The notes under the pieces are model-generated. The model was not told where the DNA came from, did not search any database, and saw only the letters and a list, made by a program, of their open reading frames with translations. A stretch of 64,000 bases of DNA, the filler included, from Circinaria calcarea (Eukaryota), in assembly GCA_051942165.1 (NCBI GenBank). It is 7 parts of 7 records of this genome, joined end to end, with 100 filler letters (N's around TTAATTAATTAA, not from the genome) between each part and the next. Parts side by side here need not be neighbours in the genome. Positions count along the whole stretch, not along the records: positions 36,678 to 45,739 come from JAVECS010000992.1; 6 more parts are not named here. One strand, given 5' to 3'. This document shows, one piece after another, positions 9,074-54,999 of this stretch (its first letter is position 1; every line of letters begins with the position of its first letter). Both the position numbers and the translations under genes were made by a program.

Positions 9074-9173
9074 NNNNNNNNNNNNNNNNNNNNNNNNNNN
9101 NNNNNNNNNNNNNNNNNTTAATTAATTAANNNNNNNNNNNNNNNNNNNNNNNNNNNNNNNNNNNNNNNNNNNN
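9074..9173. other. Artificial contig linker
   Basis: N-run + TTAATTAATTAA (stops in all six frames) + N-run, 100 bp. Confidence 0.98.
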
Positions 9174-18244: not shown

Positions 18245-18344
18245 NNNNNNNNNNNNNNNNNNNNNNNNNNNNNNNNNNNNNNNNNNNNTTAATTAATTAA
18301 NNNNNNNNNNNNNNNNNNNNNNNNNNNNNNNNNNNNNNNNNNNN
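18245..18344. other. Artificial contig linker
   Basis: N-run + TTAATTAATTAA + N-run. Confidence 0.98.
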
Positions 18345-27412: not shown

Positions 27413-27512
27413 NNNNNNNNNNNNNNNNNNNNNNNNNNNNNNNNNNNNNNNNNNNNTTAATTAATTAANNNNNNNNNNNNNNNNNNNNNNNNNNNNNNNN
27501 NNNNNNNNNNNN
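27413..27512. other. Artificial contig linker
   Basis: N-run + TTAATTAATTAA + N-run. Confidence 0.98.
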
Positions 27513-36577: not shown

Positions 36578-36677
36578 NNNNNNNNNNNNNNNNNNNNNNN
36601 NNNNNNNNNNNNNNNNNNNNNTTAATTAATTAANNNNNNNNNNNNNNNNNNNNNNNNNNNNNNNNNNNNNNNNNNNN
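36578..36677. other. Artificial contig linker
   Basis: N-run + TTAATTAATTAA + N-run. Confidence 0.98.
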
Positions 36678-36896
36678 TACGAAAAAATTAAGGATAAAAC
36701 TAGACGGAGAGTAACATGAGTTATATGAAAGCAACATACGGACATACATGTCAACTATGAAGAATTTAAAAAGTCTTGAAAGAGTGGTACCAAAATAAGG
36801 GAGGAAATTAAGAAAGACGTAACAAGCTCAAAAGAACTTAAATCCTTTAAAAAGATAAAGCGAACTATAGCCTGATTTTTTAATCCTAAGGAATAA
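36678..36896 (+). CDS. Plasmid accessory ORF-L, 5'-partial (code 4, 72 aa), Trp-rich domain
   Basis: YEKIKDKTRRRVTWVIWKQHTDIHVNYEEFKKSWKSGTKIREEIKKDV...WFFNPKE*, with four TGA read as Trp. Homologous to ORF-R. Confidence 0.75.
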
Positions 36897-36917
36897 TTCA
36901 AAACAAAAAAAAAAGTT

Positions 36918-36984
36918 TTTGTCTAGAGACTTTATAATATCTAGTACTGTGTTTTTATAAAATAAATTAAATTAAAAAAAAAAA
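36918..36984 (+). promoter_or_regulatory. Conserved leader or putative promoter of the DNA polymerase gene
   Basis: TTTGTCTAGA..ATCTAGTACTGTGT..A-run-ATG; homologous to the RNA polymerase leader. Confidence 0.6.
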
Positions 36985-39858
36985 ATGAAATATAATTATG
37001 AATTTACCAACAAAACAGTTACAAATAAGAACTGTATACTTGCATCACGTAAGAGATTAATCTCTACATGAAGACAAAATATAAGATCTTTATATTTTGA
37101 CTTTAATAACTTTGAGTTAAATCTTTTTACACAAATGATATTGGATAATTTTAATGTGGGTATTACGTACTCATTACTATTAAAGTTGCGATATGACGTA
37201 AATTATTATGGTATGGGGGGAGGTCAAATAGGGTTTAGACTATCAAATGTTAATGACTTAGAGTCAATAAAGAGGTTATATCAAGATTTTAACAACAAGA
37301 TTAGAATGTTTGAAGAAATTTATAACGTAGAAGAGGTAGAGGTAATACAGATATTATACATAGAAATATCAGAGATCTCCAAGTTAAAACTCCAAAATAT
37401 TAATCATATTAAATTAAACAAGGAATTTGTAAAGATTAAAGAAGTTAAGAAACAATATGGTTCTACATTTTTGCCTTTAACAGTAAATACTAATTACTAT
37501 GGTAAAATAATGCGTAACGATACACTTATTACATATATTAACTTGATTAATAGTCAGTTGGAGCTTATACACAGTGGTTTATTAAGTTCCAATGTACTGG
37601 AAAGCATGTATCTATATAACGGGGAGTATATAATTGTTAATAAAAAATTAGAGTTTAATGTATTTAAAAGAGAGGTGTATAGTGCTAAATCTGGTAGATT
37701 ATACTTGGAGGCTCTAGATAGTATATTAAACCAAAATACTTTTAAGAGAAAGATTGGGAATGTGACATTAACTATAGAGAATAGCATAGTAGTACACTTA
37801 GAGATATCTAAGGAATTATCATATGTAAAGCAGCAGTATAAGCCTTATAAAGAGTCATCTAATCCCTTTATAGGTAGTTTAGATTTAGAAACATTTGTTG
37901 ACTCAGACGGATATTCAAAAGTGTATGCATTAGGGTTTGTGACGAGAAAAGAGGAAAATAATCCTGTAATATTTTATTTGAAGGATTCATCTTCTAGCTC
38001 AGAACAATTAATCTTGAATTGTTTTGAACTTTTATTATCTAACAAGTATAATGGTTATATTTTTTATGTTCATAATTTTGGAGGTTTTGACGCTGTATTC
38101 ATATTAAAGGCATTGATTGAAGCTAATAAAAACAAAGGGAGTGAATACTATAAATTATCTACTCTATATAGAGATGATAGATTATTAAAGTTGGATATTA
38201 GGGTTAATAAAGGATCAGGTTTTAATAAAATTAGCATTGTAGATTCTTATAATCTATTAAGTGGTAGTTTGGATAAATTATCACAGTCTTTTGGTTTGGA
38301 AGTTACAAAAGGTAAATTTCCTCATGAATTTGTCAGAAGAGATACTTTAAGTTATGTGGGTAGTACACCATCTATCAGTTATTGAAAGGACTTGAGTAAA
38401 GAAGAGTTTAAAAAGATTTATAGAATAGACTGAGATTTAAAACAAGAATGTATTAACTACTTAGAAAAGGATCTTCTGAGTCTTTTGAAAGTAATGGATA
38501 CTTTTAATAGGTATGTTTTTAACAAATATGATTTACAAATGACTAATAGTTTGACTATATCCAGACTAGCTTTAAATATATTTATTAAGGATTATTTAAA
38601 AAAATCCAAACTACCAATTATAACAAAAAATATGTTTAGTGATATTAAAAAAGCTTATTTTGGAGGTGTAACTGAGGTATATAAACCTTATGGCCGAAAC
38701 TTATATTATTATGATGTTAATTCATTATACCCTTTTGCATCACTAAATAGTATGCCTAACACAAGTTGTATTTACATAGAAGATCATAAAAATAGTCTAA
38801 ATATACAAGACTTATTTGGTTTCTTTTATTGTGAGATAGAAAGTAAAGATAATTATCTAGGTTTATTACCAGTTCATAGCGAAGGAGGTTTAATTATGCC
38901 TAATGGTAAGTGAATTGGATGATATTTTTCAGAAGAGTTAAAGTTCGCAAGTATTAATAATTATGATATAAAAGTCATTAAAGGGTATACTTTTAACAAA
39001 CAAGAAAACGTATTTAATGAGTATGTAAGTCATCTATATGAGATAAAATCCAACAACGAAGGATCAATTAAAGTTATAGCAAAAAGTTTATTAAATAATC
39101 TTTTAGGTCGGTTTGGATTAGACATATATAAACCTGTTACTGAGATAGTAAATAGAGTAAAATTAGAGTTTATCAGTTCAACGTGTAAAGTAGTCTCTTA
39201 TAAGAATATAACCGATAGAGATTTTTTAGTTGTTTATTACCCTGAGGTCTCGAAAGAAATCTGTGAATCACATGGTTTAGACTATTTTAAAGTCTTGGGT
39301 GAAAAATCTAAATACAGCTTAGAGAAAGGTACTGAGTTTAAAGACGTATCTTTAAGTACAGCAGCTGCGGTTACATCTTACGCAAGAATATTTATGGGTA
39401 AAATAAAGCTAGACATTTTAAAGAATGGAGGCTCTATTTATTATACAGATACTGATAGTATAGTCACTAATAAACCTTTACCAGAAAAACTAGTCGGTGA
39501 TAAGCTAGGGCAATTTAAACTTGAATATGAAGTCCAAAGAGCGTATTTTATCTCATCAAAAACATATTGTTTGTTACTTAAAGATTGATCTGTCATAATA
39601 AAAGTTAAAGGGGTAAAGAATGATTCGTTAACTATTAGTGACTTTGTAAATATGTATAAGGGTATTAACGTCGTAGGTGTTAAACAGGATACAATCACTA
39701 GTTATGTAAAAGGATCTGTAGTAATATCAACTAAAAATATCAAATTGAATTATAACTCATATACGAAGAGAGAAAAAGTGTACAAGAACGGTCTGTGAAC
39801 GGGTACTAAACCTTTGATCTACAACAATAGTAATAATTGCTTGGCGGAGGGTAAGTAA
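36985..39858 (+). CDS. Protein-primed family B DNA polymerase (code 4, 957 aa)
   Basis: One frame with 7 TGA read as Trp. ExoI LDLET, ExoII YVHNFGGFD, ExoIII YLEKD, motif A YYDVNSLYP, motif B KSLLNNLLGRFG, motif C YTDTDS, C-terminal KREK..W..TKP. Confidence 0.96.
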
Positions 39859-40015
39859 AAAAAAAAACAAGATTGAATTACTTTAATGCACAAGGGATAG
39901 TATATCAAACTGTAATAATAGTATTTCTATTGCTAAACGTGTATCTAACATAAGTAAACCAAACTACATATCAGTATATGTTATATTATCTTGTTAATTA
40001 GCACTCTAAATAGTC

Positions 40016-40055
40016 GTAAAAAAAGGAAAGTAAAATTTTACTTTCCTTTTTTTAC
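40016..40055. terminator. Perfect 40-bp palindrome between the convergent polymerase genes
   Basis: GTAAAAAAAGGAAAGTAAAA|TTTTACTTTCCTTTTTTTAC. The terminator role is inferred from its position. Confidence 0.55.
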
Positions 40056-40069
40056 TTTCCTTTTATTAA

Positions 40070-43000
40070 CTAGCTCACTATATAGGAACTAGATTTTATA
40101 AGTTCAATGTCTAAACGTGTACTTAATACCAATTCAATATCGGGGAATTTCATTTTGGGAGTATTCTCTATCTTAATAATATTATTAAGATCATCGAAAC
40201 ATTCTTTACCGTAATGAAATTTAATATGTTGCCTAATTTCTCTATCTATTTGTCTTAAATAGTTATCATCTGAGTATATCTTAATATACACAAGCTTTAA
40301 CAATTCCATAAGATTCTCTACATTATTTGCCGTAACAGCAAAACAATCATGTATGGCATATATATTCTTGACGTCTGATGAATAATTATTAAAATAAAAA
40401 TCAGTTAACAAAGCAAGTGAAGCTGCATCCAATGAATGAACTAAGTTAGGCATGAAAGCACGTATCTGTTTGTTAGTGTTATATTTATCTTTATTGGGTA
40501 TCTTTAGTATAAAGCTACTTCTGTCATGGGAAAAAGGTCTTAATTTAGCTTCTTTTGTAGTAAGATAACTTTGTCTAACTACAACTCCTGAGGGTAAACC
40601 TCAAGGTATTACAAGATTTAACCTTGTACATATTTTAGCTATATCTTTTAAATATTTAATTAAGAGCCCTAACTTCATGAAATTATTATCTAAAACTACT
40701 CTTAAACCTGTTGCGATTAAACTGAAATCATTAAATCTTAGTCTAATATTAGGATCATCTATAAATTGATATCATCCGTTCTTAGTATTTAACTGGTCTA
40801 TATCTGAATCACTATCTTTACATTCTACAAAGTGCTCTTGTATATACTTTATCATTTGATGTGTAGTAACATTATATGCTATTGTCATAATAGCTTTCTT
40901 TATAATAGACCTTTGTATACTTAAATTACTTAATCTAGTGTAATTATCTCGATCTTCATCCGATAAATCCTTTAATTTTAGTTTATCCCTAAAATAGTCT
41001 ACTAAATTAACAGACAAAAAGTTGTAAAAATCTTTAGGAACATCCTCTCAAGTTGATTCTATTAAATTTAACTCTTTAGCAAGATTAAAATCACTGCTCA
41101 ACATAGAAAGGTGTTGATATCCATTACAAGTAGCATCTAGTTGTATCGGTAAATATGTTTCAAAATAAATAGTCTCATTTATATTATATGACTGTAATCA
41201 TCTAGTATATTCAAAACAAAAGGCAATAAATAATAATTTACTCTCAGCTTTAGATATTAATATACCATTTTCAAAGTCTATAATATTATTAATGTTGTCA
41301 TCAATTCATTTTATTCTATCAAATCAGGATTTTTTATCTAACTTATTACCATAACAATTTGCTCCAAATGCTTTTAGATAGTTTATTGCTTTTATATCTG
41401 TTTTCATTATTCTTTCAGGTTTGCTATAAATTAATAGAGATTTAGCTAATTCATTTGACTGATAGTTTAAGTATTGACTAATACAATTCATTCTACCCCT
41501 AAAGTCCAACCTGACTGGTAAATAAAATTCATGGATATTAGAGTATACTTTAGCTAATCCTAATATGTTCTCTTGTAGTTCTAATTTAGCCATAAAACTT
41601 TCTACCTGTAATCTTTCTTTTTTTGATAGTTTAGATTTTTCTAATAAATTATTTATGTTGTCTATATAAATAAGAAGATTATACTTACTACCATACTTAC
41701 TAATAAAGTTTAAAACGTCTCTATTTATCTTATAACCTACTGAGTTCATGTTATTAACTAAATCATATGCTACATTGCTGCTTTTTACACTAGAGGCTTC
41801 TTTTAATTCTCAATTATCAATAATTAACTTATCTGTAATTTTTATATCGTTTAATAAATAACCACCTAATCTTTCTACTGGCTTATTGTTAATTATCTCT
41901 CTAAAATAGGGTTTAGGTTTTACTATCATAGGTATTCTTACTGGTAAATGCATTAATTTTTTAGTGTTAACTAAACTAGATAGTACCTCATTAGTAGGTA
42001 CTAAATAACTATGCTTTTCAGTTTTACTCACCACAACTATCTTATTCTGTACTAACTTAGCTTCTTTTAATCATTCTACAACTATACCTCCTATATTACC
42101 CTTCAGAGTTTCATCATTGTAAACACTTACTAAATCAGTATTTTCTGCTTTTCAGTCCGTCAATGTATATCTATCGCCATTGTCCTGATGTTCTCTCTGT
42201 TTTATGTATAAAGAATAGAAATAATCTCTAATTAAATTTTCACTTATATCAATAAAAACGTTAGTAGATATATTATTATTATAAAAGTCATTATAATTAC
42301 TTATAATTCTAGCAAATCTACCCAACATGATAGATATTAACTCTTCATTACTTATTTCTTTTAATAATCTAGACAAATAATAACGACTAATCACATTTTG
42401 ACTTTGTCTAACTGACTTTGTATTTAAATTATAGGATCTTGCTCTAAAGTTATTTATAAACCCCAAGAGTATTCCTTTTGAATCTAATAACAAATTTTTT
42501 ATCTTAAGACCACTAAATAAATCATAATTTATAGATGAATTTTTAGAATTAGGATCTATAGATATATAAGAATAATCCATCAAAAATTTTTCTATACTTA
42601 TTTGTGTCTCTTCATTAATGGGTGCTTTTTTAAAAAACGTTTCTAGACTATTAAAAATAACTGAATCTTCTTTCATAGATTTTTTACTTACCGAAGCTAT
42701 TCTATCCTTAGATCTTTTTGCACTCGTCGAAGAATATCTTACTAAACCTAAGTTCATATGTATATTCTTAAAAGAAAATTTATTTATACCTAATTTTTTA
42801 ATGAAATGACGGCCTTTACCTGAAAGGTTAATCTGACTAGAATGAAAATCATTATGAGTGTATAGAGCATACCTGAAATCACTATCTAAAAGGGATAATG
42901 AGCTAGTTAATGTATTGATTGAACCTCTGTATTTCTTAGGCCCTGCATTAACTTCCATACCATTATTCTTTAAACTCTTTAATAGAAGATCTAAATCTTC

Positions 43001-43939
43001 TACTATAAAGATACATCTGTTTAAAATATTATACTTACTATCCATACCGTGATCAGTAGAGGACTCTTTAATAAATTCCATAGAATAACCCGTAGCTACC
43101 TCTAAGAATGTTCTAAGATTCCTATTAAAAGCTAATTCCATAAGATAACATGTTTTTTCATTATCTGAAACGATTACATTTTGTGCTGACTTCGATAATT
43201 GTCTCATAAAATCATATAAACTTCTAGGAAGCTCACTATGTATTTTTTTTCTATAAGATTCTGTAACTGCAGTTTGAAAACCTTCCACTTCATTTCATAA
43301 GTGAGACAGATAGCCATCCCCCATTAGATCATTTACAATAAATAAATTACCATTAAAAGCATTATAATAACGCTTTTCATTTATTTTAAAATTATTAAAT
43401 AGGAATGCGACTAAAACCATTGTAAATATGGGACTATAGTAGATATTATTATAAACCAAAACATTTTTACCCTCATTCTTAATAACTCTAAATGCTACAA
43501 CATAAATACCTTTATATTTTTTATTAGGAGATTTGAACTTATTAGTCCCCAATTTATAACCATTTTCTAATGCATCTTCTAACTCACCGCTAATTAAGTA
43601 ATTATTTTTTCCAAACGTATGTTTCACTTCTAGTTTCTCCGAATTTAAATCGCAATCTAGATCGTCATCATCCATATAAACAATTTCATCTTCTGCTATT
43701 GGTGAATTATTGTCTACTTTAAGTAAAAGATTGTCTGATAACTTAGGCAAATTATCTTCTCTTCTAGATAAGTTATTATTTAAAGAGTTGGAGACCGCTA
43801 AACCATTAACTGCATTGCTACCAGATTCATTTATATCTAAACCTATTGATTCTATGCTTGGCTTCGTAGAATAAAGTTCGACTTTATTGCCCAAATTGTA
43901 ATTCGAAATTTTTGTTGTTTTATTCATTATTTTAATCAT
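40070..43939 (-). CDS. T7/T3-type single-subunit DNA-dependent RNA polymerase (code 4, ~1289 aa)
   Basis: Six ORF-track fragments share one frame, separated by TGA codons. Motifs: PMIVKPKPY, LDFRGRM, LPIQLDATCNGYQH, RSIIKKAIMTIAYN, WGLPSG..VRQSY, PNLVHSLDA, IHDCF. Confidence 0.96.
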
Positions 43940-44018
43940 TGTTTTTTTTTTATTTAAATACGATTTATATACACAATACTAGATTTATAATGAATATTCA
44001 TTAAAGGTTCTAGACAAA
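43940..44018 (-). promoter_or_regulatory. Conserved leader or putative promoter of the RNA polymerase gene
   Basis: Minus strand reads TTTGTCTAGA..ATCTAGTATTGTGT..A-run-CAATG; homologous to the DNA polymerase leader. Confidence 0.6.
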
Positions 44019-44056
44019 CCTAATTTACGAAAAGTAAAATAGAGTAAACTAATTTT

Positions 44057-45739
44057 CTATACTATACTCCTTTTATGATTTATGTGATGTACATAACCAT
44101 GCTTACGATGTACATACCCATGCCTTTGATGACCATGTCTATGATGCTCAGATCCGTGGTGTCTATGCATTCTAGAAGTTCTAGAACTCTTATTATTGCT
44201 ATAACCTTCTGACTCCGAAACTTTGACGGGTCTGTGATGTCTATTACTTCTTTCAACTAGAAGAGCTCTATCATTATTACTATCACCTACATGACTAGTA
44301 TTAGTTACACCATTTCTAGCTACAAAACCTGTATTTTGTTTCACATGAATGTTAGCTCCTTTACGATTTCTATCCGCTAAATAATTAGATTTATTTCTAT
44401 CTTGTATTGGATTATCAAAAGGACGCTTTTTATCTAAAAGATTCTGGACCTTTTTCTCTAAATTAATTTTTAACTCATCTTTAATAGTTTTTCATATCTT
44501 AGTATCCGGGGATCAAGAATCCTTAAATTCTGCATAAGAACTGTAATTACCTCTTCTATTTTCTCAAATAGTTCAAAGTAGCTTACGTCTACCTCAACTA
44601 TCATATTTAATATAAATACTATTAAGATTAGAATCTAGAGATTTAAATCCCAATTTTATCTTACTAAATAAACCGGGTTTAGCTATTACAACTTCTTTAC
44701 TTGAGTAACCTCTGTTTAGTTCCATAAGAATTCCTTCTCTGATCTTTCGTCTTCGATTACTAAATTCTTCTTCAGTATTTATAGTAGGGATTGTGTTATT
44801 AGACGTATGTTTGTTAGAGACACTATCCGATTTTAAGCCATCTAGAACTTGTCCATTAACTTTAGCCGGACTAACTCTTCTTTCACCTACATTTTGGCTA
44901 TCTGAAGATGATGGGAATAATGGAGACATTGTGTTAGGTGTTGTTAAATTACTAGCTTTTATTCTAGGAGGTATATTAGGTGAATGGTTTGGTGTTGTAT
45001 TTACAACTAAAGGTGTACGATTTGGTGTGGTATATTGTGTGGTAATTGATGGAGATGATGGAAATAGAGGTGACATTGTACTTGGTGTTGTTAAATTACT
45101 TGGTCTAGGTGCTTGACCGAGTGGTCTATTAGCAACTTGTGGTGTCTTTTCAAATAAAGGAAGATTTCCACTTGCTGCGGGAGAAGGTATTATACTAGGT
45201 ATATGTCTAGGCCGTGATGGTAATACCTCCGATACCATATCTTTAGTTGGTGCTTTTATTCCAGCAGATCTATATAACTCTGATACAGGTCTACTATAAG
45301 ATATAGAATCCCTATTAAAACTTGGAGTAGGTGCATACTTTAAAGGTACTGAATAAGTTGTTGTGGCTCTAGATGTAATGGACGCCCTTGATGCATGCGA
45401 TGATCTAGAAACATGAGATGATCTAGATATATTATCATTCGGATTATAAGCAACTGGACGTAAATATGTATTGTTTGTAGATTTGTACCTATCTCCCTCA
45501 TTATCTATGTGAACACTTTTACCTTTATCCTTTCCTTCACATAAAATAGGTTTAAATAAATCTAACTCAGGTATATATGTATAAATTTTTAGAATAAGAG
45601 AAACTAATAGACCAATAAGGAAAAAGTCCTTAAAACTAGATAAATCGTAGCTAAAGTAAAGGACGATATATCAACGAACGGTGAAAGAAAGAACCAAAGT
45701 AATAGATAAGATAGCTAAACTTCGAAGAGTAAATAAATT
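44057..45739 (-). CDS. Plasmid accessory ORF-R, 5'-partial (code 4, >=560 aa): 2 hydrophobic segments, S/P/T-rich linker, Trp-rich domain, His-rich tail
   Basis: Translated by hand: open from the contig end to TAG at 44057 when TGA=Trp. It joins ORF-track pieces 44594-45238 and 44057-44344. Confidence 0.85.
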
Positions 45740-45839
45740 NNNNNNNNNNNNNNNNNNNNNNNNNNNNNNNNNNNNNNNNNNNNTTAATTAATTAANNNNN
45801 NNNNNNNNNNNNNNNNNNNNNNNNNNNNNNNNNNNNNNN
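45740..45839. other. Artificial contig linker
   Basis: N-run + TTAATTAATTAA + N-run. Confidence 0.98.
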
Positions 45840-54899: not shown

Positions 54900-54999
54900 N
54901 NNNNNNNNNNNNNNNNNNNNNNNNNNNNNNNNNNNNNNNNNNNTTAATTAATTAANNNNNNNNNNNNNNNNNNNNNNNNNNNNNNNNNNNNNNNNNNNN
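54900..54999. other. Artificial contig linker
   Basis: N-run + TTAATTAATTAA + N-run. Confidence 0.98.

Follow-up and report, generated by a model that had tools for sequence, protein, structure and literature searches.

The window analysed here, a stretch of 64,000 nucleotides from the genome assembly of Circinaria calcarea (GCA_051942165.1), contains at positions 36678..45739 a single contig (JAVECS010000992.1) of 9062 bp, which carries four inward-reading frames when translated with genetic code 4 (table 4): a short gene at the left end (ORF-L), a family-B DNA polymerase (PolB), an RNA polymerase and a long gene at the right end (ORF-R). Judged by this gene content, the contig is an incomplete linear plasmid of the invertron type known from fungal mitochondria. 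The present analysis concerns the two arm genes, for which a preliminary description had claimed that both encode the same unassigned Trp-rich domain of about 48 residues, hidden from standard-code gene calling by TGA codons read as Trp.

The window consists of several distinct contigs joined end to end, cut by six spacers of the form N44-TTAATTAATTAA-N44 (9074-9173, 18245-18344, 27413-27512, 36578-36677, 45740-45839 and 54900-54999), and the spacer-bounded pieces measure 9071, 9068, 9065, 9062 and 9060 bp, in falling order, in addition to two end pieces. Since the spacers separate contigs, the adjoining sequence has no relation to the plasmid, and nothing can be read from one side of a spacer to the other. 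The G+C content of the plasmid contig is 22-38%, against about 45-57% in the neighbouring contigs. Integration of the plasmid in the nuclear genome, with the neighbouring sequences as its flanks, was considered and rejected, as these flanks are other contigs lying behind spacers. The Trp codons of the four plasmid ORFs comprise 27 TGA and no TGG, the Pfam matches of both polymerases are each uninterrupted and span TGA codons, and all four frames are fragmented under table 11. No tRNA genes were found on the plasmid contig. No terminal inverted repeat was found inside the 9062-bp contig, whose two ends are both cut; by comparison with the related contig L073 and the related protein P0006, roughly 270 nt or more are missing at the right end, and the first ~100 codons of ORF-L together with the repeat at the left end.

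ORF-R (44057..45739, minus strand) is the long-form gene, with 560 codons open to the contig end and a TAG stop, and lacks ~24 N-terminal residues relative to P0006. It comprises a predicted N-terminal membrane anchor (45590..45739; hydrophobic 19-mers at residues 3-21 and 32-50, hydropathy being the only basis of the anchor calls throughout), a Ser/Thr/Pro/Asn-rich linker (44777..45559; 46% S+T+P+N), a conserved, Trp/Tyr-rich domain of ~124 aa (44405..44776; family profile positions 2-125, E 1e-41) that contains 27 K+R against 17 D+E, a net charge of +10, and a basic, His-rich C-terminal tail (44060..44404; 115 aa with 22 K+R and 17 H), all on the minus strand. The 48-codon module at 44471..44614 (minus) corresponds to residues 55-102 of this domain. 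ORF-L (36678..36896, plus strand) is the short-form gene and is represented by its last 72 codons and a TAA stop, the 5' part having been lost at the contig start; thus, position 36678 marks the start of the contig, directly after a spacer, and not a true boundary of the left copy. Its Trp-rich module (36678..36827, plus) matches positions 58-107 of the family profile (E 2e-11) and encloses the segment 36678-36821 reported earlier. A search with ORF-L recovered its orthologue P0011 (169 aa, 79% identity, on a 111-kb contig), which is laid out as an anchor, a short linker, the C-terminal module of ~55 aa alone and a tail of the K-x-T-x-x-W-F-F type. The linker of ORF-R also contains a 51-nt direct repeat (44903-44953 and 45050-45100, 84% identity, 147-nt spacing), which duplicates a Ser/Thr/Pro-rich peptide with SPLFPSS at its end.

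Translation of 36678-36821 (plus) and 44614-44471 (minus) under table 4 yields exactly the two peptides of the preliminary description, with identical residues at 18 of the 48 ungapped positions (38%). The three shared Trp residues (W14, W17 and W34) are encoded by TGA in both copies, and the ORF-R stretch has two additional TGA Trp codons. The paralogy between the arms is also recovered by BLASTP of the 72-aa ORF-L fragment against ORF-R (33.1 bits, E 3e-7, 16/40 identities). The contention that standard-code calling misses the domain is borne out under table 11, where the ORF-R domain falls between the broken ORFs 44594-45238 and 44057-44344. The notion of a 48-residue domain stands in so far as a shared module is concerned; it is not a free-standing unit, being the C-terminal half of the ~124-aa domain in ORF-R and being cut by the contig end in ORF-L.

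Likeness between two stretches of this kind could be non-functional, arising either by chance in a biased composition or as the decaying remnant of a longer terminal inverted repeat, in which case the ORFs would not be genes. The contig is AT-rich, the two stretches are inverted relative to each other on the two arms, as the copies of a decayed inverted repeat would be, and ORF-L is only a 72-codon fragment on the plasmid contig. However, the two copies have a best ungapped BLOSUM62 score of 97, and three tests of 5000 shuffles each gave no value as high, whether ORF-L (mean 30.3, sd 4.5, maximum 57), ORF-R (mean 29.5, maximum 54) or both within the basic region (mean 29.3, maximum 69) were shuffled. 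Identity between the copies at the first, second and third codon positions is 0.52, 0.60 and 0.42, so that the third positions are the least conserved and the second the most, and the synonymous sites are saturated; together these values indicate that the likeness is kept at the protein level, as had been proposed from the divergence of the DNA. Estimates of dN/dS (pairwise Nei-Gojobori, table 4, 12 orthologue pairs) agree with that proposal: 0.24 for the ORF-R domain, 0.55 for the whole of ORF-R and 0.35 for ORF-L, each against its counterpart in L073 (the short form in the case of ORF-L), and 0.23-0.92 for the nine other pairs. The values are below 1 in 12/12 pairs, open-frame orthologues of each copy are present in many contigs, and the two copies belong to separate old lineages (see below). 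As far as the sequence goes, a non-functional origin is refuted, and we assign it only a negligible probability.

A word-indexed search with the ORF-R domain retrieved four relatives of the same overall layout (P0005, P0006, P0007 and P0008), and a profile of the domain matched 378 proteins at E<=1e-3 among 1.84 billion representatives, including 176 at E<=1e-10 and 16 at E<=1e-30. At its C-terminal end, the family consensus of the domain reads Y.KY.di.KRKf.W.iWEk..gnY.SY..FK..wdp.t.iwkeI. The domains of the family members are net basic, the tails of many are basic and His-rich, and a hydrophobic 19-mer occurs within the first 120 aa in 94 of the 112 full-length-like members.

The earlier statement that the domain could not be assigned to a named family was upheld, no Pfam, PHROG or PDB sequence match having been found. 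Pfam gave no family at E<=1 for ORF-L or ORF-R and none above the cut-off for any of the 50 members scanned; PHROGs gave nothing below E 0.03 (best E 0.038); and the PDB sequence profile search gave one match, at E 0.19. A search of the ESM Atlas with residues 345-480 of the relative P0006 returned no usable match, and three scans of viral contigs detected no match to the ORF-R domain, to PolB or to a degenerate DNA pattern. The names of the 24 family proteins looked up read 'hypothetical protein' only. A literature search, with most of the original plasmid papers outside its coverage, found no description of the domain, of the long/short pair or of a shared N-terminus borne by a terminal repeat. 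The accessory gene pair appears to be an uncharacterised, widespread one, carried on a known type of plasmid.

The long and short forms were followed in metagenome contigs, which were searched with a degenerate DNA pattern whose Trp columns accept either TGA or TGG, because gene callers and back-translation miss Trp encoded by TGA. The pattern has one match in the window (none expected) and 115 loci in metagenome contigs, none of which is the window's own contig, the best having ~72% nucleotide identity. The contigs, 116 including that of the window and many of just 0.6-3 kb, were read by six-frame code-4 translation and the family HMM, a match being called long-type when it starts at or before profile position 35. 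Long-type matches are present in 109 contigs, short-type matches in 50 and both in 43. Both polymerases are present in 13 contigs, and in nine of these (the plasmid contig of the window, L026, L031, L040, L043, L045, L069, L073 and L078) there is one inward-reading family ORF on each arm; a tenth, L050, has both forms in tandem on one arm. Long and short forms lie on the same strand, 0.2-2 kb apart, in ~30 further loci, and where a long match is surrounded by at least 3 kb on each side, a short-type match is also present in 11 of 21 loci.

The genomic surroundings of the family members were scanned in 78 of 139 ORFs of at least 150 aa, from six of ten long loci; the scan left out L021, L048, L049 and L080 and some overlapping opposite-strand ORFs. 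The surrounding genes include cox1, cox3, cob, nad1, nad2, nad3, nad4, nad6, atp6 and rps3/VAR1-like genes, and likewise genes for LAGLIDADG and GIY-YIG endonucleases. The mitochondrial genes around the members indicate that the family resides in both plasmids and mitogenomes of the fungal type. A cluster of database proteins of 476 aa (P0013, P0161-P0170) has two domain matches per chain. In the related locus L053 (4650-5105), a short-type ORF closes at a stop under code 4, so that the 'two-copy' chains may result from gene calling that merged a short and a long gene lying in tandem.

The short forms keep only profile positions ~58-111. The last Trp of the long forms is usually Arg in the short forms (I-W-K-x-I as against I-R-x-E-I), and a terminal motif of the K/R-x-T-x-x-W-F-F type is present in 20 of 40 short-form rows, that of ORF-L among them. 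In a tree of the module (115 sequences, 94 long and 21 short, over 55 columns, with many forks unresolved), the long/short label changes only twice, against a mean of 19.7 after shuffling of the labels, with no value as low in 500 shuffles; on the first tree, a single clade of its 19 short forms was not rejected (p-AU 0.225). The rows nearest to ORF-L are P0011 and the short forms of L073, L050, L029 and L069, while those nearest to ORF-R are the long forms of L069, L088, L098 and L044. Judged by these placements, ORF-L and ORF-R are ancient paralogues of one family, in separate short and long lineages. The separation of the two lineages on the tree indicates a duplication older than the spread of the plasmids, with both copies retained.

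The paralogy proved wider than the preliminary description allowed; the module is shared as claimed there, and the N-terminal hydrophobic anchor is common to the two proteins as well. P0011 gives two collinear matches both with ORF-R (anchor E 1e-5, module E 5e-8) and with P0006 (anchor 6e-5, module 3e-10), and of the 32 loci with both forms, 23 show similarity at E<1e-3 between the regions that precede the domain. Contig ends were compared in the eight two-arm relatives of the plasmid, and in seven of them one contig end repeats an inner part of the other arm in inverted orientation, over 94-130 nt at 97.7-100% identity in six and over 36 nt in L073. Such an overlap is the remnant expected in an assembly when a terminal inverted repeat has been collapsed. 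Exactly at the overlap, the long and short ORFs have 29-42 identical in-frame residues in five of the eight relatives (L069, L026, L031, L040 and L043); the identical residues number 22 in L078 and 7 in L073, and there are none in L045. It is concluded from these alignments that, in the relatives, the terminal inverted repeat contains the promoter-proximal part of each gene together with the segment for its hydrophobic N-terminus. With one 5' segment repeated on both arms in this manner, the two proteins have their anchor in common and differ in their heads.

As for the plasmid itself, homology to the inner end of the L069 terminal repeat extends over the last ~148 nt of its contig (45592-45739), and the ORF-R anchor stretch (45590-45739) is homologous to the inner end of the terminal inverted repeats of L069 and L073. 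A 251-nt contig from another metagenome (sequencing run X1, record 8) aligns over 45594-45737 alone and is unlike the plasmid outside these limits, its lower break falling where the terminal repeat should end by homology, while a 771-nt contig from a third metagenome (run X3, record 24) covers 45233-45739 and continues beyond the end of the plasmid contig. A search of sequencing runs for the plasmid listed six DNA runs, with small shares of 0.05-0.13, and no RNA run was among those listed as matching. Four of these DNA runs were aligned to the plasmid and gave short pieces that are 90-99% alike, which indicates that close relatives of the plasmid exist elsewhere. Plasmid-like pieces of this similarity are present in rock, biocrust and soil metagenomes.

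A recurring hydrophobic N-terminus was also observed in neighbouring ORFs of mitogenome contigs. The ORFs L001:2885-3754, L001:3920-4753 and L001:9491-11518, as well as L061:10331-11290, have a very similar hydrophobic N-terminus (N-L-N-K-I-I-I-I-F, then G-F-I-S-R, by eye) and different C-terminal parts, the Trp-rich domain being present in only one of them. The hydrophobic anchor may hence be a reusable module.

An AlphaFold2 model of the ORF-R domain (103 sequences; mean pLDDT 85.5, pTM 0.71) has a helix at residues 2-21, four strands at 24-31, 39-47, 50-59 and 65-72, and helices at 81-86, 93-102 and 107-116, with the 48-residue module covering the end of strand 3, strand 4 and helices 2-3. 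In the model of the short form P0011 (40 sequences; pLDDT 73.6), a long helix at the N-terminus is followed by a disordered linker and by a C-terminal part made up entirely of helices. The earlier suggestion of a helical module is accordingly matched by the short-form model and only in part by the long-form one, in which the module is a beta-hairpin followed by two helices. The models leave room for the view that the short form may need a partner to fold. A Myb/SANT repeat, in which three Trp residues lie 18-19 residues apart in a three-helix bundle, was tried as a candidate and rejected: there is no Pfam Myb/SANT match at E<=1, the first two shared Trp residues are 3 residues apart on a predicted strand rather than 18-19, and the fourth ORF-R Trp is replaced by Arg in ORF-L and in most short forms. 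With its four-stranded sheet and helices, the domain could also belong, in highly diverged form, to a known class of nucleic-acid-binding folds (PUR/Whirly-like), and so be a new branch of a known superfamily and not a new fold. Unlike the Pur-alpha/Whirly-like folds, for which the scores are at noise level and no sequence signal was obtained, the ORF-R domain has an extra N-terminal helix and three C-terminal helices, and we consider such a membership improbable.

The working model that we regard as the most likely, and which is advanced tentatively and by analogy, is that the pair tethers the plasmid DNA or its replication machinery to the inner mitochondrial membrane from the matrix-facing side. 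Both proteins would be synthesised within the mitochondrion, and their common anchor would insert them in the inner membrane, with their strongly basic C-terminal parts remaining on the matrix side. Under the positive-inside rule and Oxa1-type insertion, large charged C-terminal parts are expected to stay matrix-side, and those of matrix-made proteins with large, highly charged C-terminal parts should therefore be on the same side as the plasmid DNA. The Trp-rich module, with help in the long form from its basic and His-rich tail, would bind the plasmid nucleic acid or the complex of terminal protein and polymerase, and this binding would tie protein-primed replication or plasmid inheritance to the membrane, in the manner of p1 and p16.7 in phage phi29. 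The short form would probably act with the long form as a partner or modulator. Nucleic-acid binding may reasonably be inferred from the charge, the aromatic residues and the context, and the combination of a basic aromatic domain with a His/Arg tail suggests a fit to polyanion binding.

Several observations weigh against this tethering model. Most of the invariant residues have aromatic side chains (W68 and Y81, with F84 nearly invariant) and may just form the core of the domain, and a Trp-rich basic module could equally bind a membrane surface. The models give the module strands in the long form and a helix in the short one, which makes its actual structure in ORF-L uncertain. Three of the 13 two-polymerase contigs (L032, L047 and L066) show the long form only. 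Constraint is relaxed in the whole short-form genes of close pairs, with dN/dS up to 0.92, where the counts are small. The plasmid contig is without both termini, its terminal inverted repeat and full ORF-L being deduced from relatives.

A membrane-directed role leads to a different explanation of the same genes, in which the pair acts on the host membrane. Its basic Trp-rich module and amphipathic tail would lie at the surface of the inner membrane and promote the spread of the plasmid by altering how the membrane or the mitochondrion behaves (fusion, inheritance, respiration), or the two proteins would form an addiction-like pair, with the short form counteracting the long. A Trp/Tyr/Lys-rich composition is typical of interfacial peptides, and the N-terminal hydrophobic anchor in 94/112 members, the tight pairing of long and short forms, and the retention by the short form of half of the domain and of the conserved K-x-T-x-x-W-F-F type tail (20/40 rows) all agree with it. 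Transmembrane intergenic ORFs of no known function near plasmid-derived genes are likewise described for Heterobasidion mitogenomes, in the parts of the reports available (PMC4201751, PMC10234125). However, the long-form domain is modelled as a compact globular alpha/beta fold (pLDDT 85.5) and not as an amphipathic peptide, the long His/Arg-rich tails are better suited to polyanion binding, and no similarity to a known toxin or pore family was found in Pfam or PHROGs. We consider an action on the host membrane to be unlikely, though it is the main rival of the tethering model. The tethering model can also be taken in a stronger form, as a widespread, hitherto undescribed two-protein system in which the terminal repeat serves as common promoter and first segment and a new Trp-rich alpha/beta nucleic-acid-binding fold holds a protein-primed replicon at the membrane; as a whole, this stronger proposal is doubtful.

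Between the arm genes lie the two polymerase genes, which are convergent, that for the RNA polymerase being inverted relative to PolB. PolB (36985..39858, plus; 957 aa, 7 TGA Trp codons) matches PF03175 (E 1.1e-97, residues 354-764), has an N-terminal extension of ~350 aa ahead of the Pfam match, and has 510 relatives at E<=1e-20. The closest named relatives are mitochondrial, from Peltigera malacea (59% identity), Xylaria hypoxylon (55%) and Dactylella (50%), followed by the Podospora anserina plasmid polymerase DPOM_PODAS (48%, PolB core) and by proteins of Trametes (48%) and Moniliophthora roreri (47%). The nearest of these names point towards Pezizomycotina, lichen fungi among them. Three PolB relatives of ~1250 aa (P0246, P0248 and P0250) have RNase III domains (PF00636 and PF14622, by precomputed annotation) in addition to PF03175, an odd fusion for a plasmid DNA polymerase. 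The single-subunit, T7-like RNA polymerase (40070..43939, minus; 1289 aa, 10 TGA Trp codons) matches PF00940 (E 3.7e-61). A leader upstream of and across the PolB start (36950..37015, plus) forms an inverted repeat with a leader at the RNA polymerase start (43910..43975, minus), the two being 73% identical over 66 nt and 91% over a 22-nt core, which is an A run between TTAAATTA and ATG at the start of both polymerase genes. This shared sequence probably serves the plasmid's own RNA polymerase as a promoter or a leader. A perfect 20+20 palindrome between the convergent genes (40016..40055, unstranded) would fold as RNA into a hairpin of -21.3 kcal/mol (z -6.0; none of 200 shuffles folds as well) and is likely a two-way terminator or processing site.

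The plasmid resembles the fungal invertron plasmids, such as pAL2-1 of Podospora anserina, in its PolB with a long N-terminal extension and its T7-like RNA polymerase in convergent arrangement, in its AT-rich size class of ~9-10 kb and in the use of TGA for Trp. Terminal inverted repeats are present in its relatives, its own termini not being in the assembly. The kalilo and maranhar plasmids of Neurospora are also of the invertron type and linear mitochondrial. In the classical two-ORF plasmids, the polymerase genes themselves start in the terminal repeats; the present plasmid differs in having two extra genes, one per arm, with 5' ends that are located in the terminal inverted repeat in the relatives. 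Linear mitochondrial plasmids are usually described as two polymerase genes and "unknown ORFs", and the present results indicate that some of these ORFs form a large, constrained family (378 representatives) with an old long/short pair, no Pfam entry and no solved relative. The start of both genes in the terminal inverted repeat, as found in the relatives, is an economical layout that provides one anchor for two proteins. The question of whether the genes are the plasmid's own membrane tether or a host-manipulating pair is now testable, and the family profile is useful for annotating orphan ORFs in fungal mitogenomes, which are broken at TGA by standard-code calling.

Agaricomycete mitogenomes are reported, in the available parts of two studies, to contain intergenic 'putative plasmid' ORFs (ppl, pplORF) and non-conserved ORFs near plasmid-derived dpo and rpo genes, which have no known function and most of which have predicted transmembrane regions (PMC4201751, PMC10234125). 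Members of the Trp-rich family similarly occur in mitogenome contigs beside cox3, nad6 and other genes, this comparison being by description only. For ppl and pplORF, the same parts mention neither a common domain nor a long/short pairing nor an N-terminus carried in a terminal repeat (PMC4201751, PMC10234125).

The membrane proteins p1 and p16.7 of phage phi29 bind the terminal protein and single-stranded DNA and hold replication at the membrane, according to the available part of the source (PMC4974454). The two proteins of the pair resemble p16.7 in their proposed function, in the layout of an N-terminal anchor (by hydropathy) and a soluble C-terminal head and in belonging to a linear replicon, protein-primed in phi29 and presumably so in the plasmid, a resemblance of analogy and not of membership. 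They differ from p16.7 and p1 in showing no sequence similarity (PHROGs nothing below E 0.03), and whereas the head of p16.7 is a helical homeodomain-like dimer, the ORF-R domain is predicted to be a four-stranded sheet with helices. No p16.7-like chain is among the Foldseek or VIA rows, a missing match that does not exclude a relation. If the stronger form of the tethering model is true, the pair would be a counterpart of p1 and p16.7 of phi29 in a eukaryotic organelle, and the first accessory function to be assigned to these plasmids.

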